A DNA stretch of 61,045 bases, filler included, from Dugesia japonica (GCA_001938525.1; 6 parts of 6 records of this genome joined end to end with filler, not necessarily neighbours in it); one strand, 5' to 3'; counted from the whole stretch's first letter, positions 18,342-49,397 are shown. A program made the numbers and translations. The notes: generated from the letters alone by a model not told the origin.

Positions 18342-18442
18342 ATTGATTTGTTTTTTTTTATTTACTTGATACTTATTTTTATTATTCAATTAAATTTAAT
18401 GCACTCAGTCTATCGTTAACCTAATAGTTACTATCTGTTTAG

Positions 18443-18799
18443 GGCCACGGATTCGGTTACCTACCAGCTTGCACCGGTATCATCGTCGTATCCTAAAATT
18501 GCTTCTTAAACGCCATATTAAACGGCAAACTGAAATAGCCTTGTTGCGACACCTGTTGCAAACGTTTAATCAAGAAGCTCGACCATATATTGAAAAAGCA
18601 GGGTGAGGTGGTTGAAAAGACTCAGCAGATACTACAGCATAAGATTGACTTCCTGCAACGTTATAAACCGGACTTATCTAGACACCTAGGGAATGAGTCG
18701 TGGATCCGTTGGAACGACAACGACGATGAAGCCGTCTTCGGTTTTTCAGATGAGGAGCCAACCAATTGGTTAGACCCGAGCGCTCTCGATTATATGTAA
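18443..18799 (+). pseudogene. LTR-encoded ORF/exon C, frameshifted
   Basis: After ctgtttAG: ..LLLKRHIKRQ..LQHKIDFLQRY..WNDNDDEAVFGF..WLDPSALDYM; homologous to the 42.3-42.9 kb and 48.5-48.9 kb copies. Confidence 0.8.
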
Positions 18800-19539
18800 A
18801 TAATTCATAATAAATGTTAAAATTAGTGAATTCTCAATTTCTTTAATAATTACAAAGAAGGGAAAATAATGAACCCAAACCATAGGTATACGAGTGAGTA
18901 CTACAAGCTAACGATGGTAGTCAACTGCTCTATACCGAAGATATAATAAGGGACATTAGATAAATTCTTGAATGGGTCTGATTTTTCCCCAGCCATAATT
19001 TTTCTAACACCAACTCAGGTTGGACCCCAACAATAAGAAAAAAGTAATAATCAATGCTAAGAACAAGGACAATTTATGTATTCTTGTCATTCTCAAAGAA
19101 ATTGAAATTGATAAAAATCATATGAATAATGTAAAAAATTATCCAGAATACATGTCAAAGTTAAATTTTGATAAAAGTGGCATTACAATAAAATTGGCGA
19201 ATACATTATAATTTGTGAAAACAAATCCTTTAGTGTCATTTTTTGAAATCATAATTCAATGATGAAAATGATACTGTTATGAAACATTCAAATCTAGACA
19301 TAATTCTAAAGTAGTTGGTGCTAGGAAAATTTATCTGTTACTATTAAAAAATACCAACAAATTTGGTTACACCACAGTAATAAATTTAAACTAATAAATC
19401 GAGATGTGAAAAAAGATAGTGGGCGAATTCGATCAACGTGGTGTTCTAATTATCTTAATGGATTCCGAGATAATATCGCTTATAATACACATGGACCAAT
19501 GTGATAAAATTCAGACGGGCATCACATAATAAACTATGC

Positions 19540-25960: not shown

Positions 25961-26989
25961 ATTAAATTTAAATNNNNNNNNNNNNNNNNNNNNNNNNNNN
26001 NNNNNNNNNNNNNNNNNNNNNNNNNNNNNNNNNNNNNNNNNNNNNNNNNNNNNNNNNNNNNNNNNNNNNTGCTTACGATTGTGCCAGCATTTTTTCATGG
26101 TATTTTTTACTAAGATTTTTGGGATCAAAATTTTTTTTGATCCCGTGAGTGTTTGCATGGAATTTTTAATTTCTTTTGTGTGTTTCGGTTGCTAAAGGGG
26201 TTAATTTAAAGTAGGGAAAGTTGTTGTGGTGTGTGTGTGAGTGTGTGAAAGAATTGAAATGGACTCGAAGGAGTTCTGGAGATCTTGGAAATAACTTCTT
26301 TTGGAATTTTATGATATGGGTGTGCTAAAAATAAAATATTGACTATATTTTGCATAATGAATCTCTATATTTTGCATGTTATTTGGGAGTCTTTATATTA
26401 TACATTGGATCAGGTAGTCTTGATAATTTTTGTAAAAGATTGAGGCATTCTAAAATTTCAAGGCACGTTATTTTCAGTGTAAGTGTGTTGCATTCGTGTT
26501 GCATCTAAGTTGCATCTAAGTTGCATCTCTATTGCTTTCATTAATAAAAACATTAAGTTAGTCTTTATATTTTGTAGTATATGGGACAGTCTTAATATTT
26601 TTGCAATAGATTGGTTAGTATTGATTTTTTTGAACTCTATATATTTATGTATGATATTGAGCAGTCTTGATATTTTTGATATTATTGCAAGATATTGTAC
26701 AGTCTCTATATTTTGCAAAGATAATAGACAGTCTTTATATGTTCCAGCCGTTCTAAAATTTAAATAAAACTAACTAACTTGATAAAATATTCAAAGAGAG
26801 AAGTATTTGTGATTTTTATATGATAAAATCTTCAAATTAAAACTTTTCTTACAAAATGATAAAACAGAACTTTTTCTATGAACAAATCATATTAGCAAGG
26901 TAATTTCCTATAAAAATCATATTAGAAAGGACCTTTTCTTTTAAAAATCATAAATTCATGGAATCTTCCCATATATAACTTATAAGAAA

Positions 26990-27860
26990 ATATTTTTATG
27001 ATTGTATAATGTTAATGAGTGTATTATTTATATAGCTAACTTGTATTGTTTACAAAGGGTTAATGAGTATATAGGGATTATGGGTGTATAGAGTTTTTGA
27101 TTGTGAAACATTTACATATATATATTGAAATAAGTGTATAAATACCTTATATATCTATATAAAAGACTTTTAAGTAAATATCTTTTATAAATCTATAGGG
27201 TTTTTTAGTGTAAAGAGTTTATAAGTGTATAGAGTTTATGAGTGTATTATTTTCATAGGGTTAATGAATCTATATGGTTTATGAGTGTATAGGGTTTACG
27301 ATCGTATATGGTTAATGAGTGTATAAGGTATATGAGTGTATAGGGGTTTAAAAGTGTGGAACATTTTCTTATATATATATATATATATAACTTAAAATTA
27401 TTGTATAAATACCTTAGAAGCTTATATAAAAAATTAAAAGTAAATATTTTTATGTCTGTATAGGGTTTATGAGTGTATTATTTGCATAGGTGTCTTGTAT
27501 TATTTACATAGCAACCTTGTATTATACTTTTTATTAGTGTATCTTTTACATAGTAACCCTTTATTATATTGTTAATGACTATATAAAGTTTATGAGTATA
27601 TAGGGTTTATGAGTGTATTATTCACATAGTTATCTTGTATTAAATGTTTTCTGAGTATATTATTTACATAGCAACCGAGTAATATAGGGTTTATGAATGT
27701 ATCAGTTACCTTGTATTATTTCCCTAGCAACCGTGTTTTATAGGAATTATGAGTGTATTATTTACATAGTAACCATGTATAATAGGGTTTATTAGTATAT
27801 TATTTACATATTAACCTTGTAATATAGGGTTTATTTACATGATAACCATGTAATATGAGA
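26990..27860. repeat. degenerate minisatellite (TATAGGGTTTATGAGTG and TATTATTTACATAGTAACC units)
   Basis: Direct inspection; the flank is homologous to 7100-7600. Confidence 0.8.
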
Positions 27861-28030
27861 TAGTAATGTAAATTCATGCTCTATTCATGTTCATGACATG
27901 TTCAAAATTTAATAAATAATATGAAATAATTATAACAAATTTAATAAATAGAGTACTTTTGTTTTTTTAATATTATTTATAAAATAAACAAGATTTTTGT
28001 TTGTCAATAAAACATTATTTTTTTATTCTA

Positions 28031-29286
28031 TTAGGTTGATGGAATATAAATGCAGGTTTTTAATTATTTGTATTTTGCTCAAGTTTAGATCAATAAATTA
28101 ATAAGTTTAAATCAATAAGTTATTTATCATTTGTAATCTTATCTTATGCTCTTTCTAAATATTTATTTAAAATTTATAGTAATTTTGTTTTCTGTCTATA
28201 ATTTGGTTTTTATTCATATTTGTTGAAACGCGATTTCTACAATATTTTCTTCTATGAGTTGAAGCTAGGACGTAATGCCGCTCAAACCACTCAAAACATC
28301 CACGAAGATTTTGGGCGAGTCAAGTATCAAGAAATGTACGGTGCAACGTTGGTATCAGAAGTTTCGTTCTAACAATACCAGCCTCGATGATGAGCCTCAT
28401 GCCAGACATCCATCAGCCATTGATGATGAGAAATTGAAGCAGTTAATCAAAGCTGATTGTCGGAAAACTACATAAAAAGTTGCTGAAGAGGTCTGTACGT
28501 TTACCAATCAACCGTGGTTTGTCATTTAAAGGAAATTGAAAAAACAAAAAAGCTCGATAAGTGGATGACACACGCATTGACCAAACAGCACAAAATCGTC
28601 GTTTTGAAGTTGCATCTTCGCTCGTTTTGCTCAACAAAACCATCCTTTTCTGGAACAATTTATAACGTGCGAAAAAAAGTGGATTCTCTACGACAACTGG
28701 CGACGTTTGGCGCAGTGGTTGAACCGCGATCAACAACCACAACACTTTCCAAAGTCAGAATTTCACCAAAAAAGGGCTATGGGGATTGTTTGGTGGTCTG
28801 CAGCCAGTTTTATTCATCACAGCTTCCTGAATCCGAGCAAAATGATTACAGCCAAAAAATAATGTCAACAAATTGACGAACAGCACCAGAAACTTTAACA
28901 TATGTGTCCAGGATTGAACAATTTTTCTCCATGACAACGCTCTGCCGCACGTCACAGAAGTTGCACGAATTAGACTACGAGACTCTGCCTCATCCTCCAT
29001 ATTTTTCGGACATCTCGCCCCCTGATGTTCACTTTTTCAAGCATCTGGACAACTTTCTCCAAGAAAAAGGTTTCAAAAACCAAGACGATGCTAAAAACGT
29101 CTTTGCCAACGTCATCACCATCAGAACTTTAGATTTCTATACCGGTATAAATAAACTTGTTTCACGTTGGCAAAAATGCGTTGATTCTAGTGGTTTTTAT
29201 TTCGATTAATAAACTTGTTTATAAGCTGAGGTGTACTAATTTAAAGTTGAGATTTAAAAACCTGCATTTGTATTTCATCAACCCAA
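28031..29286 (+). mobile_element. mariner (DD34D) transposon, ~1.26 kb, frameshifted
   Basis: TIRs TTAGGTTGATGGAATATAAATGCAGGTTTTT / AAAAACCTGCATTTGTATTTCATCAACCCAA with TA TSD. Motifs TVQRWYQKFR..LDDEPHARHP, KKLDKW, HPPYFSDISPPDVHFF and RWQKCVDSSGFYFD. Confidence 0.95.
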
Positions 29287-29789
29287 TAGAAATACATTCA
29301 AATAAATATTTCATTTTTAAAGTTTCTTTTTTTTAAATAATTCACAAGTGTGGAAATTTTCGTTATTTTACAACCTTATTGCATACCTATTGCATTTATT
29401 AAAATTACCAGGCACGTGTTGCTGTGTTGCATGTCTATCTATCCCTATTGCATACATATTGCATTCATTTATAAAAAAATTATTACTGTACTACTTAAAA
29501 ACTTTAATAATTTACTATATATAAAAAACAAAATAAATAAAAGAAAACTATTATCAAGTAAAACCTTTATTGTTAATATATTTTTACATAGGTTTTCAAA
29601 TTTTTCAGCCATTCTCAAAATATTTTCTCTTAAAATTTCATAATGGGTCTTGTTTACATTTACCGTGAAATTAAATTGCAGTTCCTGCACGAAGTCGTTC
29701 ATAATTAAATCCATGTCAATCCCTGTTGTTCGCAAGGTAAGAGTAAAATATTACTCTCTGATCATTAGCATACATCTATTTAGAAATCC

Positions 29790-30989: not shown

Positions 30990-31970
30990 CTTCTAATTCT
31001 AAGTTTCAATCTTCTTCAGCCATTCTAATCTTATGGATTTGAGTTTCCCTGCAAAGTTTATAAGCACTTGGTGTGGGCTTATGAATTTAATTATTTTACA
31101 TGAACCTTCATATCTTAAATAGTTTTTATTCAGATTGTGTGGATCCACCTTTACCAATACTTCTTTCCCTTCATTAAATTGTTTATATGTACGTCTGCCG
31201 AATTCATATTTGCTTAACTTTTTAGCCGCTTCATGCAAGTTTTCATCTGCTACTTCCTTCATTTCTTTATGATCTGAACTTTCTTGTTTTAGTAACCTAT
31301 GTAAAACTATCCTTCTTCCAAAGATAATTTCGAAAGGAGATAATCCAGATGATTTCTGTTGAGTCGCATTCATAGCAAATTTTATTCTTGGTAGTAATTT
31401 GTCCCAGCTTGCTTCCGAGCATCCATATTTTATCGTTGTTANNNNNNNNNNNNNNNNNNNNNNNNNNNNNNNNNNNNNNNNNNNNNNNNNNNNNNNNNNN
31501 NNTGGCGATGCGAACTCTTGTTTTATCTCAAATTTATCTGCAAGTGATTGCATTAATTTTCCTTCAAATATCTTTCTTCTATCAGTTAAAAATGACTTTG
31601 GTTTCCCAAAACAATATATACATTGCTCTTTTATTGCATCAACCACTGACGTTTTATCCTGTTTATTCAATTCTACAAAAGAAACTAACTAACTAAATCT
31701 GTCAACAAGGACGAAAACATATTCTTTCTTAGTTTGTGCTTCAGGAAAATGAGCAATATCCATGATAACTCGGTTCTTGGGACCAGACACTCTTTTGTTC
31801 TGCCAGTTTATGTCTTTATCATATTGCATATCATACATTTTTCTAATTTATGTTCTACAATATGTTTCATATTTGGCCAAATATAACTTACATTAAAATA
31901 TTCTGTCAGTTTTTGTCCTCCTACGTGACATAATTCCTCGTGAATGAAATCAATAAGTTCGGGTATCGAT
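30990..31970 (-). pseudogene. pol: Ty3/Gypsy integrase with following polypurine tract
   Basis: IHEELCHVG..YIWPNM..CMIC is the HHCC finger; FGKPKSFLTD..FAMNATQQKSSGLSPFEIIFGR is the core and downstream region. The purine run agaagagag follows the stop. Confidence 0.9.
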
Positions 31971-32428
31971 AGTAGATAGATATGAGCCAGGGCCCCTCGA
32001 GGGGGGGACCCCCACCCCCCGATTTTTTGCCCGCCTACTTTTTGGACTACGCCCCTTTTTGGACTCCGCACCCTTTTTATCTTTTGGACTCCGCCCCTTT
32101 TTATCTTTTTCTCCGCCCACTTTTTTGGACCCCCCTTTTTATCCTTTTCTCCACCCACTTTTTTGGCCACGCCCACTTTTTTATCTTTTTCTCCGCCCAC
32201 TTTTTTGGCCACGCCACTTTTTATCTTTTCTCCGCCCACTTTTTTTGGCCACGCCCACTTTTTTATCTTTTTCTCCGCCCACCTTTTTGGACACGCCCAC
32301 TTTTTTGGCCACGCCCACTTTTTTATCTTTTTCTCCGCCCACTTTTATTGGCCACGCCCACTTTTTTGGCCACGCCCACTTTTTGATGACTCATATTTTT
32401 TTCAAAAAATTTTCTATGTCAGAACAAA
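31971..32428 (+). mobile_element. probable Polinton terminal segment (AGTAGATA start, GC-box tandem repeats) inserted into the Gypsy integrase
   Basis: The integrase frame breaks abruptly at AGTAGATAGAT, followed by a hairpin cccctcgagggg and tandem ttttttggccacgcccac / tatcttttctccgcccac units. The family assignment is inferred from the AG terminus. Confidence 0.5.
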
Positions 32429-32528
32429 NNNNNNNNNNNNNNNNNNNNNNNNNNNNNNNNNNNNNNNNNNNNTTAATTAATTAANNNNNNNNNNNNNNNN
32501 NNNNNNNNNNNNNNNNNNNNNNNNNNNN

Positions 32529-33345
32529 TGCTGGTCGTATGATTTCGGACCTGATCTTATCGTTTCCTTGAAATTATCTATCCTATCCTTTAGATTACCC
32601 TCCTTTGGGGCTTGATCGATAGGTGCTATAGCTCGTTGTCCTTGGTATTCATTGAACATTGCTTCTTTTAGGTGAGGTAACTAACAGTCCTGGTGATCTA
32701 CTTTGTGTGTCAATGTTGATGTACCTGTATTACATGATCCATCTGCTGCTTTGCAGTATGACCTTCCTTTCATTGTTAGATCCTGGGCATCAAAAAATGC
32801 TTCATATTCTTTGAGTTCTACTGTATAAGTTTCGATTGCCACTGCATACGTCCATACCTTTCCTCGTATAGTGTATGTACCATATTCACAGTTACCTTTG
32901 TGTGAGGATATGCTTCCTGCTGCTTATATCGGTTGATCAATTACATGCTCTTTCTTGGCAATAACTTGAGTCCCATGTTTGATGGTAATTTTACCTGTCG
33001 TAAATCCTTCGTCCCATTGTTGTCCTGTTAGATGTACAGTCTGTCTCACTGTTCCTGGATCAATTATCGAAGTATAACTGTGATAACCACAATGAAATAT
33101 AAACGTCTTTACTGTTACTGTACATTCGCGTACTTGGACCTTATAATAATCGGACTCCTGGTACAAGTGGTAAATAGAATTATTATGGAGTGAGATTTTC
33201 TCCGGGTTTGCGTCTGGACATTCTTCTGTATCCACTAATGAGAATACTTCCTTCCCAACTTGCAATTCATCGCAATTGTATGCTAATAGGGCTTCACTTC
33301 TGCCCATCATTAAGAATAACAAGAGTATTGTAGTGGTTAACGCTT
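32529..33345 (-). pseudogene. env: envelope glycoprotein, chuvirus-G-like, N-terminal part with signal peptide; two in-frame stops; truncated by gap
   Basis: ALTTTILLLFLMMGRSEA|LLAYNC..FSLVDTEEC..LYQ..VQVRECTV..FHCGYHSYTS; past the stop it continues in frame as AAGSI..GNCEYGTY..W..AVAIE..YCKAADGSC. The cysteine and motif spacing match chuviral glycoproteins. Confidence 0.8.
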
Positions 33346-33449: not shown

Positions 33450-33850
33450 CATATGGCCTCAATAAACTTTTTCCATCCCCCATGCTGCTTTATCAACGGC
33501 ATTATCTTGTTCTGCATGAGCTCCACTATTGGTAGTTTACTGAGAATGAAGTTTTTTGACGGTTTGCTTCTAGCGATTGATAGGTGTTTTTGATTAATTA
33601 GATGCGCTATAGATACTACTATCCTTCCCTTTGTAGTCTGATCTTGTAATAACTCATCTATTACTCCTTCTAAATAGTCTCTTGTGCCATGACTAGTACC
33701 TTTAGTGGCGGGAAATTTCTTAATGGCTGCTTCTATTTCTTTTACCAGTGGTTTGAGACTATCAGATAGTTGAAATTTCCCAATCCATATCTTTAATTCT
33801 GGATAAAGCATTAGCAATAGTTGCGGTATTACTACTTCAGTTGGCATGTC
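33450..33850 (-). CDS. Bcl-2-like domain within the polyprotein ORF 32924-34801
   Basis: BH1-like YLEGVIDELLQDQTTKGRIVV, BH2-like NKIMPLIKQHGGWKKFIE, and an upstream amphipathic BH3-position helix LSDSLKPLVKEIE, in the correct order and spacing. Confidence 0.72.
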
Positions 33851-34569
33851 ATCATATATCTTTTTGATATCTTTTTGCGATATCGTTGCTAATCGCTTAG
33901 TTTGGTGAGTTATTGATGTTGTTAATCGTTTTTGTTTCAATGCTTCCTCCTCCCCCGGATTTCCTGGGTGTTTCGTTCTTGGTCTGCTTCTATTGCGAGG
34001 TTCAATAATAGTTTCTGCATCTACTCGGGTGCGCACTGGTTTTGGTGGCGCTTCTTCCTCTTCTGTTTCAATTGGATTTTCCATTTCTAGGGGGTGGTTT
34101 GTATCCATTAAATCATCCATTACCGAGGATGGCAATTCCTTTGCTATCCTACTTAATATTGGTGATAATGGTTGTTCCTCTAATACATCTTCCTCGTCTA
34201 GGTCTACCTTGCTAGGATCATATTTCTTGCTTCTAGTTGGCTCTTTGACTTTCATTTCCTCACTTTTTCTAGTTGGAGGTGAGTATCTTGTGATCTGCAA
34301 TTCATTCTCATCTTCTGTTAACTCGTCTGCTGATGGAGATCCGAATATTTCACGTTCCCAATCTTTGTTTGTTTTAGGAGTTTCCTTTGTTTCTCGAGAC
34401 GCTTCTGTACTTCCGGATTGATCTGTTGTAGGTCTTAATATTTGACTAGCCGCTAATTGTGTACGGAGTTTATATGCTTTTAACATACCTGAGGTCTCTC
34501 CCATTATTGATCTTGTTTTGTCTGCTGCCTTATAAGGGTCTGCGTCTTTTCGAGTGAGAGTACATCCTA

Positions 34570-35045
34570 ATTCTGGAAAAATCCACAACGTATTAGGTTT
34601 AACTAAATCTATTTTCATTAGTCCAATCGGGGTGGTATCTTCCACTATTCCATCTTCATCCAAGAGTTTGTGTGGTGGCTTAAATGGTAACTTGTCTCGT
34701 AGGTGCTTTACCATATTGTATACTGGTATCTTTATCGTGATTTTATCTCCCTCTGGATCAATTGTTCGGAATTTGACTTTTAATGGAGTGGTCTGTCCCA
34801 TCTCTGCTTTCTGGCAACCTCATTTGGTCTAGTTCTATTACTTGGTTATAATAGAGTACTATGTCGTCTTCCTGCAATAATGTTTGCATTCCGGTTTCCC
34901 CCTCGTCAAGGCTACGCTGTTGATTCATAAATTTTATAATCCTTTTCCGCAACTTAGCCCATGGTTCATTCATTTGGACCTGCCAACGAATTTCACTTTC
35001 ATCTGAAAATTTGATTATTACGGCCACGGCTTCATTAGTTATCAT
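34570..35045 (-). pseudogene. two tandem SUMO/ubiquitin-like domains (frameshift near 34820)
   Basis: VIIKFSDESEIRWQVQMNEPWAKLRKR..IVLYYNQ.IELDQ..CQKAEM is SUMO/Rad60-like. EGDKITIKIPVYNMVKHLRDKL..LLDEDGIVEDTTPI is Ub-like. Confidence 0.55.
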
Positions 35046-35055
35046 TCAAACTGCT

Positions 35056-38000
35056 TTAATTAATATTGCATCCATTACATCTCCTGGCATTCAGGACTAG
35101 TTGTATGGCTTTGTCATGTCTTAATAGTTCCAAGTTTTCTTCCAAGGTTAAGAGTATTTTCATTATTACTCTCGCCACACTTCCCCATGTTTTACTGTCT
35201 TCCCATAAGTCAATATTTATCTCCATTGTTCTATCGTCGACTTCTTCAAACAATTTCCCACTGTTAATTTCTTGTTCGTATAACCCCTCCAGTTGTTGTA
35301 GTACTTCTTTCATGGATTTTATCGGGCCTGGGGTGTAGTCTTCTGGTTTCTGTATTTGGAGAAATGTATTTTCACCTGGTCTTAATCCTATGTCCAGCAG
35401 ATGTTGTTTTCCTTCAAACTTTATGGGGAATCTCAGATGATCGCTTGTGATTATATAGCTTTTCTGCTGGTCGGCTATATCCAGGGTTTCTATAATTTTC
35501 TGCAATTCCCCAGCTGACGTACTGTTAAAATGTGGTATATGCATGACAGCCAATTCCGGTTTCTTCCTGGGTTTTTTGTTTGGTGTCAGATTTTCTATCG
35601 TGACCTGTAAATCCTCTCTCTTGGCACTTGTCTTCACTGCACCAATATACGGCTTGATCACTGACTCCCATTTGGCACGCTCTTCCTTTGTTATTTCAGT
35701 ATACTTTGCCAGATCCATTAGTAAATTTAATGCCCTCCAAAATGCTGCTCGAGGTATCCTTTCCTGGAAATAACAGAAATCAGAAATTATCTTCGATATC
35801 CGCTCTGTCTGAGGGTAACTGAAGGGGCCAACAAATTCTTGTTTAAATGGTAACAGTCGTGGTTGGACGATGTCCTCCGAGATTTCTTTCTCCTCCTCTT
35901 CTTCATCTGATATTGGGTCTGTGGCTTCATGGTTAATATCCCGAACCATGTTTATTTGGGCTTTGTTTTCTCCATATGTGTTTATGAGTCGCTCATTCTC
36001 TACTGGTAAAATTTCCTGAATATATAGGCTCATCATATTGAATATGAGTTGATCGGTATCCGGCATTTTTGGTATCGGAATGTCTATGGTCATTTTACGC
36101 GGTATTGGTTTGATTTCCGTGATCTCCCCTGGTTTGATATCATGTAGAAAGATTTGGTCCTCTTTCTCGGCTAGTATGATCATTGTTGCTCCTGCCTGCA
36201 TTTTATAGGACTTGAGCGATTTTGGCCATAACCATTTCTTGATCGATTTTATGATATGGTGGATAGTTAATCCTTCCAGAGTTATCATATCTACCTTTTT
36301 TATGCTTCCCTCTTTATTGAGGAGGCTGACTCTGATAGAATAGTTAGATATGGTGGATGTATTTTGTACTTCCTCTTCGTATAAAGTTTTCTCTTTCCAC
36401 CATTGTGCTCGAGCCCACAAGCTGAGCTGTCCATAGGTTGCCAAATCCCGTAGGTTATTCATCATTTTCCAATATACTTTGATATTTACTACCGGCCGAG
36501 TTTCTCGTGTTACTCTTAGTAGATCGTTGATAGCATGAAACGTGGCGGATTCTTCCGTTATTGGTTTCGTGTAGTTCATCCGAATATCACGTATTGTCGG
36601 TGTCCCTTCCGGAAATTCAACTGATTTTGTAGTAATTATTGGCAAGTTATCAATATTCTGTATTTTCCGATTTTCTTTTACTTGTTCCTTTATACCTGAC
36701 AATACCTCGGATACGTATAATTACGTTATTTCATCCATTCGTTCCTCAAGATCTGGTGATGGGTTGGTCCGTGGCTTCTCTTCTACATCTAACTCACATA
36801 TTTCTCCGGGCATGGCATTGGAATATGTGTTTGTCCTCGTCGTCGGTCTCAACTAATTTGCCATTTATGAACAGAGGTACCATGTTTAGCCCTTATTCTC
36901 GCCTCTTATCAGTAATGGCATCCATTAAATCCATCATGGTTATTCTTTGTGGTTTTAATCGGCTATATTTAGTCAGTTCCTGTTCATTTTTACCTAAATT
37001 CAAATATAATTTATAGTCCTGAATTTTGGAAGTTGCCAATATTTCTTCGGCATACTTTTTTCTAGTCATGAGCCATTGATTCTCAATTTCCTCCGGTATT
37101 TCCAGTCCATCATATATGTCGTAAATTCTATTCATTATCATCCAAAATGTCTCTCGGGGTAACTTCTTCTTCTCAATCTGTACTCGGTTAAACATTTCCT
37201 CCACCTTACGCATCGCTACTACCTTTCTTGCTGGCATTTGCCGCATCCTTATCATGTTGCATTTACCTTCTCTTCTCTCTAATCGTTGTTTGAGAAAATC
37301 TTTACGCGTCATCAATAACTGTTTCCTCTCCTCCTTTGTCAGCTTGTCTTTCCTCCCTAGTACTGTGGAAAGTATCTTTATTTTAATAGGTTCCACTTCC
37401 TGTTTATATAGATATTCCATTTCTCCCATGATTTCTAATGCCGATCTTCCGGTTTTCGTTATCCATATGTCATAGTTGATACCAGGGTGTTTGTCTAATA
37501 TTAAAATTTCAATTTCCTCTCCTGGTTTTACCCCAAAATCGTATAGATGTCTTTTTCTGGCATTAAAATCTACTATAGCACTTGGAGTACATACCTATTT
37601 ATCGGTTATACATGTATAGCCTGCTTGATTAAGCGCCGCTTCTAGATCTTTTACCATTAATTCGGTGAGTGTCAGTTTCATATTTCCTTCTGGGTTATAC
37701 AACCATAATTGGTAGTCTGATAATCCCATGTTGGATATTACCCAATCATAATGCACTGGTAACCATTCTGTCCAATCGCTTTCATAATCGGTGATCAGTT
37801 GTATAACTTCCAATAACTCAACCAATCGATTGGTAAACTTTAGGTATACATCTTTCTTTATCGTATCATGGAGTTTCTGGGCGGCTACCAGTATCTCATC
37901 AATTCGGACTAAGGATAGTCGTGATGCTTCATTTTGTTCCAATTCCGCATAGTCCATTAGTCTAACTTTCTCAAATCTTTTCCGTAGGTAGTTTTGAGCC

Positions 38001-38620
38001 TGGAGGGGAACTATTTCCTTTAAGAATGTTTCTTCGAGATTATGATATAACTCGTCCGTTTCTATTTCTTGAATTACTATTTGTGGTCGGAATACCAAAT
38101 ACCAATTTATCAATTTAATTATTGTAGTTTCATGAGGTCGTTCCCCGTAATAAATTAGATTCCTGTCATCTGAAAGAATATTGATTCCTATATTACCTCT
38201 TTGCAATCTGTGCCTATTCCACTTTCCATTCCATTGTTGCTGAACGTTAAACGGTGGTAATTCGAGAAACGGGTTTATAGTCATACCCTTGATACCATTT
38301 ACTTCCCTACATTTTATCTCGTTAATAGCCTCTTTCAAATGTCGTACCGTCATTCCTTTTAGTGGTAGCTTTAGTCGTTTTGGAATGACCTCCGGGTTGT
38401 TATGCCATACATATTGAATTTCGAATTCGTAATCTTCTAGCCTAGTTTCTTTATAAAGCTCGGCGATATAATCCGATATTGTTTTCTGCCAGTTAACTTT
38501 TACTTTTGCGTGTACCTGTGGGTGCTGGTATAATTGAAGTAACTGATTCATCACTCACCTTCTTCCGGTGGTTGTCGTTGATGTTTATATCGTTTTATAG
38601 ATGATTTCATTTGCTCACTC
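35056..38620 (-). pseudogene. tandem array of five diverged ~230-aa helical plus ubiquitin-like repeats (one polyprotein broken by a few stops/frameshifts)
   Basis: Recurring motifs: F/YWxxMNxL..W helix; TVRHLKEAI / MVKDLEAAL / TMMDLMDAI / TIHHIIKSI / SAGELQKII; NLIYYGERPHE / HLYDFGVKPGE / HIFQC.MPGE / QIFLHDIKPGE / HLLDIGLRPGE; then LYxQEI. ORFs 37595-38554 and 36893-37429 are in the same frame across a single TAG. Confidence 0.7.
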
Positions 38621-38829
38621 GAATTCTGGTGACGTAATCAGTAATCGTTTTCGAGTATCTTCCATTTCGGTAACCTCCGTTGTTTCATCATGTTGGTTAT
38701 AAATTTGTCTATGTGTTCNNNNNNNNNNNNNNNNNNNNNNNNNNNNNNNNNNNNNNNNNNNNNNNNNNNNNNNNNNNNNNNNNNNNNNNNNNNNNNNNNN
38801 NNNNNNNNNNNNNNNNNNNNNNNNNNNGT

Positions 38830-40240
38830 TGCACTTTGTGGTACACATTGTCAAAAGTACTTTGATGCACTAAATTGACTTGTCCCTTGTTTTGATTTAC
38901 TAGTTGTCTTAATCTCTCATTTTCCTGCATTAGATTATCCAGATTTGTATTCGGATTCCGATTATAATTTGTTTGGTTACGTTCTGACATTCTTTTGCCA
39001 TATGCCCTCTTCTGTTACACTTGTAACAGACCGTTGGATTTTTCAAAAAACACGTTTCTATGTTGTGGTTGGTTCTCTTGCAATAAGTAAAAAATCGGTT
39101 GTTGTTATTATTATTGCCTCTACTTCTACAATCTCGCGCAATATGCCCCTTTCTTTCACAGGAATTGCATTGCATATCTCGATTATTTTGCCAGTTATTC
39201 CGAGGTGCATTAAATCCTCCACCATTTCCTCTGGGATAGTTAGGTCTATCATTCCGGTTATTCCGTTCCTGCCCTGGGGTCAGGGTTTTCATCATTGATT
39301 GCGTATTGGGTATGAAATCTGATATCCGTGTAGTTTCCTCTGTCTGTCCTTCTACTTTGAATATTCGTTCTGACGGTCTATCTGCTACAATTCGCAATGT
39401 TGCCAGAGCGTCTTGTAGAGTCACTGGCTTACTCAATTTTACCATTAGTTTGGTGTTCTCGTCACATAATCCGTTCAAAAAGATGGCGAGTACTTGACTG
39501 TCTTCCAGCTTGTCTCCTAAGGCTAATTTCCCACGCCTTTTGAGTTCCATCATATACGCTTGTGGAGTTTCTCCTCTTTGTTGTTTTCGATTGGTAAATT
39601 GTTTGAAATCCTGGCCAGTCAATTTTAAATTTTGGAAATTATCGGTTAGTATTTTCACAACCTCTTCCCATTTGTCGGGAATGGCTTCCATGCCCTTAGT
39701 GTGATCCCAGAACACCGTTTTGGCTACTCCGGTCAAGTAAGCTGGCAATCGCTTCCTTTTTGCTTCCTCGTCCCATCCACAGGTTTTGGCATACATTTCG
39801 TAATTTTGGATAAGTTCATCCAACTTTTCTGGTATTCCGCTAAAATATTCGCCATCGAATTTTATTTTCCACTCCGGTTGATGGTTTTCGGTTTTGGTTG
39901 TCATGTTGTTGTCCTTTGCTGTGTTGGTTTCTATTTTCGGGTTTTCAGTTATAGCTGGGGTGGTTTTGTTTNNNNNNNNNNNNNNNNNNNNNNNNNNNNN
40001 NNNGGTGCTTCCTTGGTTACTACCTATTATCTCTGTCTCTTCTGAGGTATAACTTAGTTCGCTTAGTCGGTTTTTATCCGTAGGTGGATTATTATGGGTT
40101 CGCTTCTGGATTATTTGATTTTCTTTGTCACTTGGGCTACTATTTGAACTGATGGCTTCTAATGTTTTGGTTTTGGATAGCGAAGTTGATTTGTCGAATT
40201 CTGATTTCTTGAACGAACAAATATTCTCTTCCTGGTCCAA
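38830..40240 (-). CDS. gag: retrotransposon Gag (capsid and zinc knuckles), frameshift near the 3' end
   Basis: FSG..LDELIQNYE..GWDEEAK..LPAYLTGVA..W; RKQQRGETPQAY; CNSCERKGHIARDC and CYKCNRRGHMAKEC, plus a degenerate middle knuckle. It continues in frame 38709-38990, and decayed coding sequence extends upstream to ~40450. Confidence 0.93.
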
Positions 40241-41007
40241 ATAAAATGACGATTTCTTGAATTTCCTTGATTACCTTTGTCGGTTAAGTTGGGCTTCTTT
40301 TAGAGTTGAGCTTGGGGTAGATATTCCGGATGTAATAGACCTTGCAAGTGGTTTTCTATTTTCCGAGTCGGAATCTATTTTGTCAGAGTTCAGCTTGTTG
40401 AGTGCTTACTGTATTTCGGTTTTGGTTTTGTAATACTTGTAGTTTAACTTTCTAGAATAAAATTTACTTTTAATTGTCTTTATTTAGGAGACAATCACTC
40501 CTCTTCTTGATTTTAAACTTTCTTTAATATCATGCTGCTCTACGCTTGTCATCATAGCCCCATAATCATCTTCCTTAAATTTTTTCCTTTTTTTCCTTAA
40601 TTAAGTCTTCCTTCAATCTTCCTGTAATGCTTCCTTTATTTCTTCCTAATTAACGCCAGGTTATCTCTTCCTAAATGTGGGAGTACCCATTTTTCTGTAG
40701 TATCGGCGAACTCTTCTGGCTTTCTTTCTTTTCTTCCTTTTAATATGCCGGGGTAACAGTGCACACTTTTCCTAAATTTATGGGGGAGTACCGAGATTTT
40801 TCTGAGGGATCGGCGGCCCCGTTTGGAGTACCCTTTTCGTGCAGGCGAACGCTTNNNNNNNNNNNNNNNNNNNNNNNNNNNNNNNNNNNNNNNNNNNNNN
40901 NNNNGGGATCGGCGGCCCCGTTTGGAGTACCCTTTTCGTGCAGGCGAACGCTTCCGGCTTCTCTTCCTTTAATGCTTCTTCTAATCAAGCTTCCTTTAGT
41001 GTGCTTA

Positions 41008-41285
41008 ACTACGTGGCCTTCCTTTAACATACTGGTTAATGTACTTAGGACTACACGTATCTTCCTTCCTTGCGTAGACTTCCTTTAAATTCTTCCGAGG
41101 TTTTCCCTCCCATACGCAGGCTTCCTTAATTATGCTTCCTTATTTTCCTACGTGGTCTCCCGTTAATATACTGGTTAATGTACTTAGGGCTTCGCGAAGT
41201 CGTCCTTTAATTTGCTTCCTTCCTACGTGGTATCCCGTTCACATACTGGTTAATGTACTTAGGGCTTCGCGTAGCCTTCTTTTAA
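41008..41285. repeat. three ~65-bp tandem-like repeats in the element leader
   Basis: ctacgtgg..atactggttaatgtacttagg at ~41010, 41150 and 41223; on the minus strand these read (E/V)(A/V)LSTLTS.L..(D/G/Y)HV. Confidence 0.7.
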
Positions 41286-41931
41286 TATATGCGCATCACA
41301 TATCTGGTAATACCCAATTACTTCTTCAGTTATAGTCATTAGACAACTGTTGCGGTTGCTTTCTACAAAGGTGATCAATCTTCTGATTGCAACTTACCAG
41401 TTGGGGATCGCTATTTTCCATAACTGTGTCTGTAATAAATATGACTGGATATTCTTCCTATAATCTTCCTGAAGTTTTTTTCAAGATTAGCTTCCTTAAA
41501 TTTCTTCCTGATTAACATCCTTAAATTTATCTTCCTTTATTTTCCTTTAATTTATTTTCCTTTAATTTATCTTCCTTTACTGTGCTCCTGGTTACGTTTC
41601 CATGGTGACTTCCGTGGATATCTCGACATGATCTCTGAAAATATAAAATTACAAGTTTTATTGATTTTACTTCCTGATTTTACCTGTTTTGTTATTATTC
41701 TTATTCCTTTTTATTTACTAACTCCTTATAATCGTCTTAATTTCATATCATCCTTAACTTCCTATTTTCATAATCTGCTATTTTCATAAGTGATTACATA
41801 ATTTTATAATTTCGATATTTTATTTATTTTCATCATTTATTTAATCATTTTACTAATAATATTACACATAATAATAATCTTTATGCTCTTATTTCCCTAT
41901 TCTTACGGGGTTTTATTTCCTGAAAATTTTA

Positions 41932-41954
41932 TTCAAATCCCGGCTGAGCCCCCA
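41932..41954 (-). promoter_or_regulatory. primer-binding site, tRNA-Pro
   Basis: Minus strand TGGGGGCTCAGCCGGGATTTGAA is complementary to a tRNA-Pro 3' end (..TTCAAATCCCGGNNGAGCCCCCA) and lies 7 nt from the LTR end. Confidence 0.88.
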
Positions 41955-41961
41955 AAATTCT

Positions 41962-43368
41962 TGTTGGGGTCCCACCTGAGTTGGATGAAGAAAAGTGTGG
42001 CTGGAGAAAAACAGCCCTCAGGGGAACCCTTTCAAGAATTTGACCTAACGCCCCTAGGTTAAGTATTCAGCATATGGCGGTTGACCTCTCTCTTAATGGG
42101 AGGTGCGCGCCCATAGGCCTTTGAATTTGGGTTCACNNNNNNNNNNNNNNNNNNNNNNNNNNNNNNNNNNNNNNNNNNNNNNNNNNCCTTTGAATTTGGG
42201 TTCACTCTTTTCCCTGTTCCCACGGCTTCATCAAAGATTAGAACGAATTGAACAATAAAACTTTATTTTAAATGAAAATTAGATAAGATCCAAAGCGCCT
42301 GGATCTAACCACTGGGCTATATCGGTCGTCAAAATGTTGAACGCCGCCGAATCATCATTGTCGTCCTATTGGACCCCTGTAGGGTTTCCTAGTTGGCGGG
42401 AAAGGTCGGATATATATTGTTTGAGGAAATCGATTTTCCTCTGCAATAGCATTTTATTTTCATTTTCTAACGCTTTTGTCTACACCGCCAAGTCCTTCTG
42501 CTTTTTCACAATCTGATCACGTTTTTTGATCAGACGATCTTGCTGGTCTGAATGCTTAATCAATGCTCTATCCGCTTTCTGCTTTAAGTGGCGCTCTAAG
42601 AGTAGACGGCGCATTATGCNNNNNNNNNNNNNNNNNNNNNNNNNNNNNNNNNNNNNNNNNNNNNNNNNNTAGTTGGCGGGATAGGTCAAATATATATTGT
42701 CCTCTGCAACAGCATTTTATTTTCATTTTCTAACGTCTTTGTCAGCACCGCCAAGTCATTCTGCTTTTTCACAATCTGATCAAGTTTTTTGATCAGACAA
42801 TCTCGCAGGTCTAAATGCTTAATCAATGCTCTATCTGCTTTCTGCTTTACGTGGCGCTCTAAGAGTAGACAGCGCATTATGCGATGGCACCTTCGCAGAC
42901 TGTTTGGAAAATTAATGCGTGTCACTAAAAGAAGATATATCATTAAATTATTTCTGTAAAACAGACAAAAGATAATCAAGTGAATAATTCAGAAGGAAGA
43001 ATGTAGGTATAAAAAACGTTTATTTGTAAATTTACAAGTATCAAGGACGCGAGGTCTGGCTACCCTTGTTGACCATTAATGGTTCGAGGGGCATAGCAGC
43101 TTTTAATCGATGGACGTCCTGTACCAATTGGTTTTCGCGGTCTTNNNNNNNNNNNNNNNNNNNNNNNNNNNNNNNNNNNNNNNNNNNNTTAATTAATTAA
43201 NNNNNNNNNNNNNNNNNNNNNNNNNNNNNNNNNNNNNNNNNNNNCCAGATTTAAATTCATCGCGGAGTTTTACCAGGTCAATTACCCTAGACTTAATTTT
43301 ATATAAAGTTCGACCCCCTAGATTTAAATCATACCAGAATTCAACCCACCTAAGGTAAAACCCCAACA
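41962..43368 (-). repeat. 5' LTR of the giant element (true length unknown; spans a scaffold linker)
   Basis: On the minus strand it starts TGTTGGGGT at 43368 and ends ACCCCAACA at 41962. It contains ORF C (42279-42924) and the tail of ORF B (43041-43144). Confidence 0.8.
42279..42924 (-). pseudogene. LTR-encoded ORF/exon C in the 5' LTR (partly duplicated across a gap)
   Basis: After cttttAG: TRINFPNSLRRCHRIMR.LLLERH.KQKADRALIKH..WLDPGALDLI*. Confidence 0.75.
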
Positions 43369-45832: not shown

Positions 45833-48515
45833 CTAAATTAAAGATTTAAATTTATTACTTTATTATAAATGATGATTATGATATGGATTTAAAGATCATT
45901 TTGATTGAAAGCTCATATATTATTAAAATTTAGATCGACAAAATATTTAATCATTTAATTAAAATCTAGGTACACGAATTAAGTGAAGCCGAAACCATAT
46001 TGACTGTTTAAAACCTTTTACACAGCTGTTTCTGTCAAGTCAGTACCAGTCTTTAATGGAATGTGAATTTACTGGAGAGCCGTCTCTATATTTCCCGATA
46101 ATCTTTCAATTTTCTTGATGAATTGTATTCTTTCGAATAAATCTAATTAGACTATTTTACTTGCGATCTCTTAGCCGTAATCTAGAAGATGAACCATTCG
46201 TTACAATCGTACCAGTGGCAGCTTTGCTTGTTTCATTAACATTGTTCCAAATTTATTTGTTACAGATAATTTACGTAATTTGTTAATCATAAAGAAAAGA
46301 ATTTACTAAGCCTTGCAACACTGAGATTGTACCGACCAGTTCGTCTTTATCTACTATGTTCTATTTAAATAAACATTGATTTATCACAATACTGAAATAA
46401 ATTAAGAGCAATTATATTAATTGACGAAATTGAATATGGTTTCATTAATCACGATGAAACATTAGATATTTTTAAATAAAGTCCTCAGAGAGAATTATGA
46501 TAAAGGCAATCGCATATTAACTATAATTTAATATCATCATTATAAATCCTGAATAAATCAAATATAAAAATTTAGAAATAATATAACATTCGATTAAAAA
46601 TACGATCATACCAACAATAATATAATTATAAATAAAATTTACTATTTTCAAGGAATTTTTTATACACATGTCAAAATCAGCATTAGAAAATTTATAGGAA
46701 ATGTCCACCACCACCTAAAATTACGTTGCATCATTTTATTAGTGTCAATTTTTATTCATTTCATCTTTATATTTATCCCGAGAATCGATATCATACCAGA
46801 TCTAACCATATTTCATTATGGTTCACCTCTCGGTAGTCAATATCAATATCAGTTTATAGAGTCTAATACTTTCTACATTTATTCATCGTATTTCGTGATT
46901 CTATTCGTCAGTATATTTAAAATTTAGGTTTAAACACTCTTTTATCACACCTATCAATTCATTCCCTCAATCTCCATTTATTCTCAGATTATCGTTATCT
47001 ATTCATAGTTCATGTTGTCGAAAAATGAATCAATTGGGCAATTATCAGCTTCATACTATCTTAACTGACATTTGCATCAAGTGAAAGTGGGGAATGATCT
47101 CGTTTTTAACTTTAAACTTACTCTGAGTTTGAACGGCTCTAGGCATTCCACGCCACACCCGAATCACGATTTATCCCGATCGTCCGATGATCAGTTCTCT
47201 CGGCAGCGTCGGTGACTCTTCCCAGGGAGTGCAGGCGCCTACCGATTTCATTTAGGGTCGTTTTACGGTAGGGCGATAGAAGCTCTAGATTGACAAAAAA
47301 TGTCATGCACACCCACGCTGGAACTCACTTACAATTCAACAAGGTAGATAAATTATAGCATTTTATTTAAGCATTAAACATCAACCATCGTTTATTAAAT
47401 GTCATTCATTTTGGATCTTGCTCTTAATTGAAGATGACGTTTGCTTTGATTTTCTTTTACACGCTTTCATTCGGGAAGAATATGATTGTATATGATTTAT
47501 TCGTTTGAGAATGCTATTTCATCAATACAATAAACTGCGGAATTCTGGTGGCGATCTAGCTTTGTTCATTGCTATCTACTATTTCCTTTAGATTTTTTCA
47601 TCTAGGGTTGTGGTCCTCATAACGAGCGTTGGACATCGCAATGTTCCTTCTGGATCCTCATACCCTGCATTGGTCGTCATAGTTAGTACTTGGAAATCCA
47701 CTCCCATCATTGTGTCGCAATCTCCACTCGCATCATTCCGTTGACTAACACTTACCATTTGAGCTATCATCTTTATCGTTCAGAGGACTTTATTTTTGTC
47801 ATAGGAGAGCAGTCATTCGCAGTATTCGGTAAGATTCACCTTTTTTGTTTTAGAACCATCCGGTTTCGAGTAATACTTTTATTCTTCGCAAGCAGCTTTA
47901 TTTTTATCAGTCGCGATCAGTTTTATCATTAACTTCTTTATTAGGAGCATATTTATCATTGGCATCTTTATTACATGCATCATTATCATTAGAAAATTCA
48001 TTTGGAATTGTCATTCTTGCATATCGTTCAGGAAAAAATCGTTCATTTAGTTTTCAATTCTTCATTTCGATCTTTAGTTATAATTCAGAGACCCTCAGTT
48101 GTCGAAGTGCGAGATCCATGAAGCAAAACTAAACGTAAATTTTAAAGAAAAATTAATCTTACCGAAATACAAGATGGCCGAAAAAATGGCTGAGTGGATT
48201 GGTTTTTTTTCTTGTAGAAATTAAAGCAACAAAAATAAACTGATAATTTTAATTGCCAGGGCTTATATTTGTNNNNNNNNNNNNNNNNNNNNNNNNNNNN
48301 NNNNNNNNNNNNNNNNNNNNNNNNNNNNNNNNNNNNNNNNNNNNNNNNNNNNNNNNNNNNNNNNNNNNNNNNNNNNNNNNNNNNNNNNNNNNNNNNNNNN
48401 NNNNNNNNNNNNNNNNNNNNTAAACCTTTAATTTCGGGTTCTATATTTTCCCTATTATTATCCAAGAAAATAAACTACAACTCTGATTAAAAATTTTTAT
48501 TAAAAGTAAACATAT

Positions 48516-48898
48516 TTAAAGCAGATCCAAGGCTCCTGGATCAAGCCACTGGTCAGGGGACGTTATTTCAAAATTGAATGCAGCGATGTCCTCATCGTTG
48601 TCCCACTGCATGGTGTTGGGGTTGCCAATCTGCCTCGATAAGTCCGCAATATATTGTTTTAGGAATTCTATTTTTCGCTGTAGTAATTGTTTATTCTCTG
48701 CTTCCAATGCCTTTGTCTGGATGGCAAGGTCATTTTGCTTTTATACTATAGCGTCCAATCTTTTAATTAGCTTATCTCGTTGGTCTAAATGTCGTAAGAG
48801 GGCCTGGTTGGTTTTTCGTTTCAGGTGCCTCTCTATCAGCAGACGGCGCAGTAGGTGGTGGCATCTACGAAGATTGTTTGAGAAATGGATACGAGTCA
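48516..48898 (-). pseudogene. LTR-encoded ORF/exon C, one in-frame stop
   Basis: After ttgttttAG: TRIHFSNNLRRCHHLLRRLLIERHLKRK..(TAA at 48741)..LLQRKIEFLKQYIADLSRQIGNP..WLDPGALDLL. Confidence 0.8.
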
Positions 48899-49038
48899 CT
48901 AAAACAAATTATCATTAATTTTAGTAAAATTTCCTCAATGGAAAAGAACATAAATCTGATGAAAATAACAAAAAACAAGAAATCCACGAGACAGTTCAAA
49001 CGAGAAAATTTATTAACACAAAAGAGGTGGCCTCCAAA

Positions 49039-49397
49039 TTAATTCTTAGGGGTTTGGGTGCTTTTCTCAACCATTAAAGGTTCTAGTGGCATGGACGCCT
49101 TCAGCTTCAGAACATCACCTACCAGTTTATTTTCTCGGTCTTGGTAGGACCGGATCATCTCAACCAAGGACTCTACCTGCCCCTTCCACACTCTCTCTTG
49201 TGCATGGGAGGCCTCGACTTCCTTTCGGAAAGCCACACATTTTTTTCGGTATCGGCTTACTTTACTATTGGCGTTGGCTGTATCCGCATCCCACTTACGC
49301 TTGGCGAGACGATACAGGTCCCACGTCATCTCGCGGTCCTCGCTGTCATCACGCATTTTTTTCGTCGGAGCCGAACTTCGATTTAACGATGAGTGCA
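49039..49397 (-). CDS. LTR-encoded ORF/exon B, intact, coiled-coil-like
   Basis: A 119-aa open frame that starts at an AG|TG junction rather than an ATG; homologous to 17938-18341; AATAAA downstream. Confidence 0.8.

Follow-up and report, generated by a model that had tools for sequence, protein, structure and literature searches.

Five ancient protein repeats with a predicted beta-grasp part between Gag and Env of a likely Burro-type retroelement in Dugesia japonica

Planarian Burro/GYPSM1 elements carry a first open reading frame (ORF1) of 4,873 amino acids that runs from a Gag with two or three knuckles through MATH, Ubi2/SUMO-like and BCL2 motifs to a mononegavirus-like Env, followed by protease, dUTPase, reverse transcriptase, RNase H and integrase, and they have been suggested to be integrated proviruses (PMC6431247). 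Their cargo varies among elements with a total length of ~30 kb: that of Burro1 includes MATH and BIR, an element of D. tigrina gives a midasin-like HHpred match, and the motifs named earlier cover only half of ORF1 (PMC6431247). BURRO1 is derepressed upon smedwi-2 RNA interference (PMC8532177), and Burro1 is said at second hand to protect planarian stem cells from apoptosis via a RING-BIR region (Lee et al. 2026, as given in PMC13465017); the passages of PMC11410931 and PMC13238120 that touch on Burro name it without more. Here we analysed a 61,045-nucleotide stretch of Dugesia japonica DNA (hereafter the window, with positions counted from its first letter), in which one scaffold holds, on the minus strand, the order Gag, repeats, weak Bcl-2-like match, hydrophobic stretch and Env. 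This parallels the one-strand order of CCHC Gag, ubiquitin-fold cargo, BCL2-like domain and mononegavirus-like Env in Burro/GYPSM1, and the ~2,300 codons from 40270 to the Env signal fit an ORF1 of ~4,900–5,100 amino acids (PMC6431247). The element is likely a planarian Burro-type retroelement, and its identity as such an element with five ubiquitin-fold repeats, taken by itself, is very probable. We also lean, by a small measure, towards a role for the five helix-plus-beta-grasp repeats as a putative multivalent docking platform for host readers of the ubiquitin fold.

The array consists of five ancient, diverged protein repeats read on the minus strand in ORF A (37595-38554), ORF B (36893-37594) and ORF C (35056-36720), with the following units:

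Repeat unit 1, 37967..38554, minus strand: helices 2-3, a beta-grasp-like part with an insertion of ~26 residues, and helix 4 (leave-one-out E 3e-11)
Repeat unit 2, 37304..37966, minus strand: stop at 37595-37597 within the beta-grasp-like part (leave-one-out E 2.7e-14)
Repeat unit 3, 36661..37237, minus strand: stops at 36893-36895 and 36721-36723, frameshift near 36810-36840 (first part, leave-one-out E 5.6e-17)
Repeat unit 4, 35950..36558, minus strand: intact frame (leave-one-out E 7e-22)
Repeat unit 5, 35236..35820, minus strand: intact frame (leave-one-out E 7.8e-13)

Units were excised by coordinates, with X placed at in-frame stops, and pair scores were compared with those of 1000 shuffles. 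All 10 unit-versus-unit protein alignments scored z 5.5–10.5, a score attained by at most 1 of 1000 shuffles, and all 20 control pairs, in which a unit was set against a gag, linker, Bcl-2-like or env segment from this element, stayed at z 1.6 or below. Profiles built from four units and run against the six-frame translation of the whole window recovered the fifth in every case (5/5, E 3e-11 to 7e-22); the runner-up place in the window's six frames reached only E 0.3 at best, and the number of such units in the window is therefore exactly five. Unit 1 has no helix 1 in the open frame, with an in-frame stop at 38555-38557 just upstream, and the second half of unit 3, which lies in another frame, scores z 5.2 against unit 5 and z 4.0 against unit 4, with no match to unit 1 (z −1.1) or unit 2 (z 0.6) and an env control at 2.1. 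An invariant Asn in helix 2, at minus-strand positions 38548, 37831, 37132, 36459 and 35727, recurs at spacings of 717, 699, 673 and 732 nt (range 673–732 nt), in agreement with the ~700-bp period and the coordinates proposed by an earlier reading made from the sequence alone. The motifs listed in that reading were found as well: this Asn (Asn32) and a Trp (Trp51), both in the helical part, are invariant in 5/5 rows, an aromatic-Trp pair precedes the Asn in three of the four rows covering that place, P-G-E occurs in three of four aligned rows (unit 1 has P-H-E) and Y-x-Q-E in 3/4 rows. Conservation peaks in helices 2-4 and the turn ahead of the last strand; most of strand 3 differs from unit to unit, as does every second position of the last strand.

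The sequence-only reading had further described the repeat as hidden in the DNA yet clear in protein, with a significant internal alignment as its proposed check, and both held. Pairwise protein identity between units is 14–24%, and no DNA-level similarity was detected among them (0/10 pairs above z 1.3). Because the five units were kept after similarity in the DNA had gone, long selection on the protein is suggested. This bears on the possibility that the array stems from a piece of a host gene, which was captured and multiplied and has since persisted without function, an account that would fit a copy broken at several places and an array for which expression was not seen in the RNA runs. 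Protein similarity that outlasts DNA similarity argues against it, as do the small number of breaks, the equally broken state of the rest of the element, including env, and the failure to find a host homolog; we regard functionless carriage as very improbable. Homologs of ORF C and of the Bcl-2-like/Env region were not found either, and a repeat-profile search of 1.84 billion representative proteins returned a single match (E 9.6e-5), an acidic helical-repeat protein of bacterial look and without beta-grasp signal that we rejected as compositional, in collections that may lack flatworm repeats. The ESM Atlas gave one lead at 0.78 and nothing usable, and weak PDB sequence matches to tektin and HIP12 were rejected.

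We modelled unit 5 with AlphaFold2, using the other four units as its alignment (5 rows), and obtained a predicted local distance difference test score (pLDDT) of 77.4 and a predicted TM-score (pTM) of 0.75. The model has a helical part (helices 3-17, 24-38 and 45-65), a beta-grasp at residues ~66-160 (strands 72-77 and 90-93, helix 103-112, strand 123-126, short helix 141-144 and strand 151-157) and a fourth helix at 170-186, which from the pTM and the local confidence probably packs back on helices 1-3. Its topology is strand-strand-helix-strand-(short helix)-strand, DSSP assigning no strand 4. VIA-align placed residues ~65-161 on ubiquitin-fold domains at Z 7.6–8.3 and 2.1–2.9 Å over 74–83 residues, the matches being the UBX domains of UBXD7 and FAF1, the ubiquitin-like domain (UBL) of Ddi1/Ddi2, ISG15, talin F0 and NBR1 PB1, with UBXD7 UBX on top (Z 8.2–8.3, 2.3–2.4 Å, 78–79 residues). 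A search independent of Foldseek over 48,161 chains had a best Z of 8.2, and all 50 rows listed lay on the beta-grasp, one of them from residue 32. For unit 5 the beta-grasp fold named in the sequence-only reading is thus supported by the model (pLDDT 77.4; Z up to 8.3 and 2.3 Å over 78 residues), with no subfamily singled out; the second half of the check proposed there, Foldseek on a single unit, gave no match at E ≤0.001 in the PDB and the viral library, and the weaker rows listed were mostly ubiquitin-fold proteins. Because the families are tied, talin/kindlin F0 and NBR1 PB1 standing within 1 Z unit of the UBL matches, and because Z near 7–8 is common by the tool's own caution, no subfamily can be assigned. 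Units 1-4 probably share the fold by homology. None of the structure matches listed for the whole unit 5 model covers the helical part, and no structure search of the helical part alone was made. A profile of this part (35605-35820 and equivalents) gives a weak lead to PRC1, over its N-terminal helices (7vbg_A, E 0.0083, 38 residues), a likeness that is probably generic.

The same model admits a purely structural account, in which the array is a spacer or self-associating rod and the beta-grasp a mere folding module, as in FERM F0/F1 or PB1, that keeps Gag apart from membrane-bound Env or aids particle assembly and has no partner in the host ubiquitin system. Asn32, Trp51 and most of the conserved columns do lie in helices, variation is found in strand 3 and at every second position of the last strand, and talin/kindlin F0 and NBR1 PB1 tie with the UBL matches. 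A length of ~1,100 residues would, however, be costly for a spacer, and the neighbouring cargo is host-regulatory, with a Bcl-2-like domain here and MATH and BIR in Burro1 (PMC6431247). On balance we consider a spacer unlikely.

We found no di-glycine (GG) in ORFs A-D, and the last strand of the beta-grasp runs into helix 4, so the domains appear to be integral, neither conjugated nor signals for cleavage. The sequence-only reading was right to note the missing C-terminal GG and to doubt that the units are conjugatable, and its comparison with the processing signals of pestiviruses was not borne out, as GG is missing and the chain leads on past the beta-grasp into helix 4, which is conserved. 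Host deubiquitinases cutting at the ubiquitin-like domains would be in keeping with an array inside a polyprotein, and fragments of the bovine viral diarrhoea virus (BVDV) polyprotein are among the weak Foldseek matches in the viral library (E 0.04–0.11). The lack of GG and the passage through a linker into helix 4 speak against such cutting, and Burro has a protease of its own (PMC6431247). Conjugation and pestivirus-style cleavage are both unlikely, and cleavage signalling as the purpose of the array is largely refuted and extremely improbable. A single ubiquitin-like binding patch shared by all units is unlikely because residues differ among units along strand 3 and at every other position of the final strand, in a register that we infer. 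Plain ubiquitin mimicry is thereby weakened, and an adaptor or decoy for ubiquitin-system machinery, also raised in the sequence-only reading, is a plausible candidate role.

The position of the array raises one further possibility, a built-in ubiquitin mimic for budding that would recruit components of the endosomal sorting complexes required for transport (ESCRT) and so release enveloped particles. The array stands after the CCHC knuckles and before Env, and retroviral late domains lie just after the nucleocapsid knuckles, as in HIV p6. No PTAP/PSAP, PPxY or YPxL motif was found in a scan of the gag ORF and ORFs A-D, which took in neither the assembly gap nor out-of-frame stretches. Foamy virus Gag with a C-terminal ubiquitin fusion shows promoted, Tsg101/ALIX-dependent budding (PMC2958808). 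Against a mimic of this kind, the positions expected, on a probable register, to match the hydrophobic patch of ubiquitin are not conserved across units, and we judge it quite unlikely. The same low probability attaches to a bolder proposal, that Burro-type elements carry an undescribed domain, with a ubiquitin fold nested in a four-helix bundle and amplified to five copies behind the Gag nucleocapsid, and that this array stands in for poly-ubiquitin as a genetically encoded substitute, taking the place of late-domain motifs and drawing in host ESCRT, p97 or proteasome factors. If it were true, a retroelement with an envelope could dispense with ubiquitin ligation for budding or for the protection of its stem-cell host.

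The docking platform that we favour depends on its setting in the element, which comprises the following features around the array:

Gag, 38933..40270, minus strand: capsid-like region followed by a pair of intact CCHC knuckles; N gap at 39972-40003
Assembly gap, 38719..38827: 109 N between gag and unit 1
Possible lone beta-grasp-like stretch, 35059..35235, minus strand: found by eye, ends at a frameshift; z ≤1.5 against the units, no Pfam match
Possible lone SUMO-like stretch, 34821..35045, minus strand: found by eye; z ≤1.8 against the units, no PF11976 or PDB UBL match
Possible lone ubiquitin-like stretch, 34550..34795, minus strand: found by eye; z ≤1.3 against the units, no Pfam match
Bcl-2-like domain, weak match, 33473..33736, minus strand: PF00452 at 17 bits (E 0.0091), under the cut-off of 31.4
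Hydrophobic stretch, 33281..33331, minus strand: residue 497 of ORF E marks the highest 17-residue hydropathy (1.62) among the five ORFs
Env N-terminal part, 32529..33340, minus strand: Monjiviricetes-type fusion glycoprotein, PF24664 E 2.5e-19 and 1.7e-7, cut by the scaffold end
Spacer, 32429..32528: 44 N, a 12-nt linker and 44 N; same pattern at 43145-43244, with five such linkers in the window

The Gag knuckles match Pfam zf-CCHC (E 1.5e-8, two stretches, with a degenerate knuckle seen by eye between them), and the Retrotrans_gag match (E 0.0047) is under the family cut-off. The array ORFs take up 1,165 of the ~2,300 codons between 40270 and the Env signal. None of the three lone ubiquitin- or SUMO-like candidates is significant against the array units; that at 34821..35045 is a candidate for the published Ubi2/SUMO-like motif. 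The stretch at 34550..34795 gave weak p63/p73 and other unrelated matches in the PDB, all at E 0.08 or worse; the p63/p73 match at the start of ORF E (E 0.08) was rejected, and at 34630-34804, overlapping this candidate, phmmer weakly matched the DNA-binding domain of p63/p73 (E 0.08–0.15). Between this last ubiquitin-like candidate and the Bcl-2-like domain lies a long acidic, proline-rich and likely disordered linker (33890-34550). In the PDB, at E up to 10, 45 of the 46 rows for the Bcl-2-like stretch are Bcl-xL/Bcl-2 (best E 0.49). The Env stretch lies downstream of it in the same ORF, with stops at 32924-32926 and 32681-32683, and the hydrophobic stretch is likely an internal Env signal sequence, a role suggested by its position and hydropathy. 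The spacer at 32429..32528 appears to join unrelated scaffolds, and pol is out of view because the scaffold ends inside env at 32529. No protease adjoins the array on this scaffold.

This copy is unable to make the polyprotein, as it is broken by stops at 38555, 37595, 36893, 36721, 35046 and 32924 and by frameshifts near 36810-36840, 35060-35100 and 34790-34820. In one DNA run (X2), 20,773 contigs were placed, with depth in 30/30 bins and every identity class filled, a pattern that points to many diverged related copies, depth not being equal to copy number. In intact copies, the whole stretch from Gag through the array and the Bcl-2-like domain to Env would form one polyprotein, as published for Burro. 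The array, lying upstream of the Env signal, would stay cytosolic, and it may be released by the element's protease and signal peptidase or remain on Gag. Its ubiquitin-fold domains would be integral and never conjugated, with the conserved helices as a common scaffold and the diverged beta-grasp surfaces turned to different host partners, for which p97/Cdc48, proteasome receptors, ligases and deubiquitinases are candidates. Docking of these partners might then steer the turnover of element proteins or, beside the Bcl-2-like domain, cell survival.

Several results weigh against this platform. On the side of the fold, the model covers one of five units and was built from a 5-row alignment, a single-sequence model of ORF C is of low confidence (pLDDT 35.5), and the best ubiquitin-family match in sequence searches is E 0.62 (the RAD23B UBL); the blank Foldseek result and the caution on Z values count here too. 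The FPR loop is the p97 contact used by UBX domains, and FPR is absent from gag and ORFs A-E. As to the element, the Burro label follows from architecture, pol and long terminal repeats (LTRs) lie off this scaffold, and the Pfam scan of window ORFs gave no MATH or BIR domain. Expression is not supported: RNA runs X11, X12 and X15 yielded 14, 249 and 14 reads, all only partial fits, and RNA depth fell in one of the ten bins wholly within the array (35194-38523), in one run.

The array would fill ~1,100 residues of a Burro polyprotein left half unannotated in PMC6431247 with a predicted fold and a testable role. A larger set of host-modulating domains would also be relevant to the question of how a retroelement comes to benefit its host, for which the second-hand account of stem-cell protection by Burro1 is the case at hand. 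The repeat unit is moreover a candidate new domain architecture, with no convincing relative among the 1.84 billion representative proteins.

Elsewhere in the window, small coiled-coil-like reading frames at 42256-43142, 48488-49140 and 18418-19036 form three diverged copies on three scaffolds (39–66% protein identity). One of them, on the scaffold and strand that also hold gag, lies ~2 kb upstream of it, so such frames may be part of the leader or LTR in elements of this type. The small-ORF region contains a tandem duplication at 42390-42882 (230 nt, 85% identity), and a direct repeat of ~67–75 nt occurs three times at 40992-41286, in the presumed leader. Beyond the linker, the neighbouring scaffold has a broken gypsy-type integrase at 30999-32014 (H2C2 E 3e-8, rve E 2e-5) beside a G+C-richer tandem array at 32024-32384. 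We also detected a decayed mariner element at 28026-29291, with 38-nt terminal inverted repeats and transposase fragments, and an AT-rich minisatellite cluster at 26872-27860 with periods of 17, 34 and 42 nt.

Compared with Burro/GYPSM1, the locus differs in its cargo: the relevant passages of PMC6431247 give a Ubi2/SUMO-like motif without copy number or helix-plus-beta-grasp repeat, whereas here there are five units and up to three lone candidates, and no MATH was found. When 38828-40854, 40905-42136 and 42187-42619 were translated in their three minus-strand frames, MATH, BIR and ankyrin were likewise without a match. The Ubi2/SUMO-like family PF11976 gave no hmmscan match in the array or downstream ORFs; HHpred had been used in PMC6431247. 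The sequence-only reading found the repeats and left out this context, in which Gag, further cargo with a Ubi2/SUMO-like motif, Bcl2 and Env had already been described (PMC6431247). The element type is thus known, and we came across no description of the five-unit helix-plus-beta-grasp array in the literature searched, though Grohme 2018, Jurka 2007, Lee 2026 or supplements may contain one. The Smed_errantivirus_1-6 elements of Schmidtea (14.5–18 kb; Smed_1 and Smed_2 ~14.8 kb, with 45 and 215 copies) share with this locus an Env straight after the Gag region, in a GAG-ENV-POL order with an Env of the herpes simplex virus (HSV)/gB type, and their Env rows look similar to the window Env by eye alone (PMC13524379). 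The main text of PMC13524379, as far as it concerns these elements, mentions neither ubiquitin, SUMO, Burro nor accessory domains and leaves cargo undescribed.

Among proteins with integral ubiquitin folds, the UBX domains of UBXD7 and FAF1, the UBL of Ddi1/Ddi2, talin F0 and NBR1 PB1 resemble the units in their beta-grasp of ~80 residues, on which the unit 5 model superposes at 2.1–2.5 Å, and in their lack of a di-glycine. They differ in sequence (9–15% identity, with no FPR motif in the units) and in arrangement: here three helices precede the beta-grasp and one follows it, and no listed match covers such an arrangement. USP7 contains a tandem array of five UBLs. Ddi1/Ddi2 combine a UBL with a helical domain and a retropepsin, and their UBL is among the tied top matches; no protease stands beside the array on this scaffold, which ends inside env. 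The ubiquitin insertions of pestiviruses such as BVDV resemble the locus in placing a ubiquitin fold within a polyprotein. Those insertions are near-identical to host sequence and are cleaved after the di-glycine, whereas the array units are of ancient origin and have no GG, the chain leading on into a helix.

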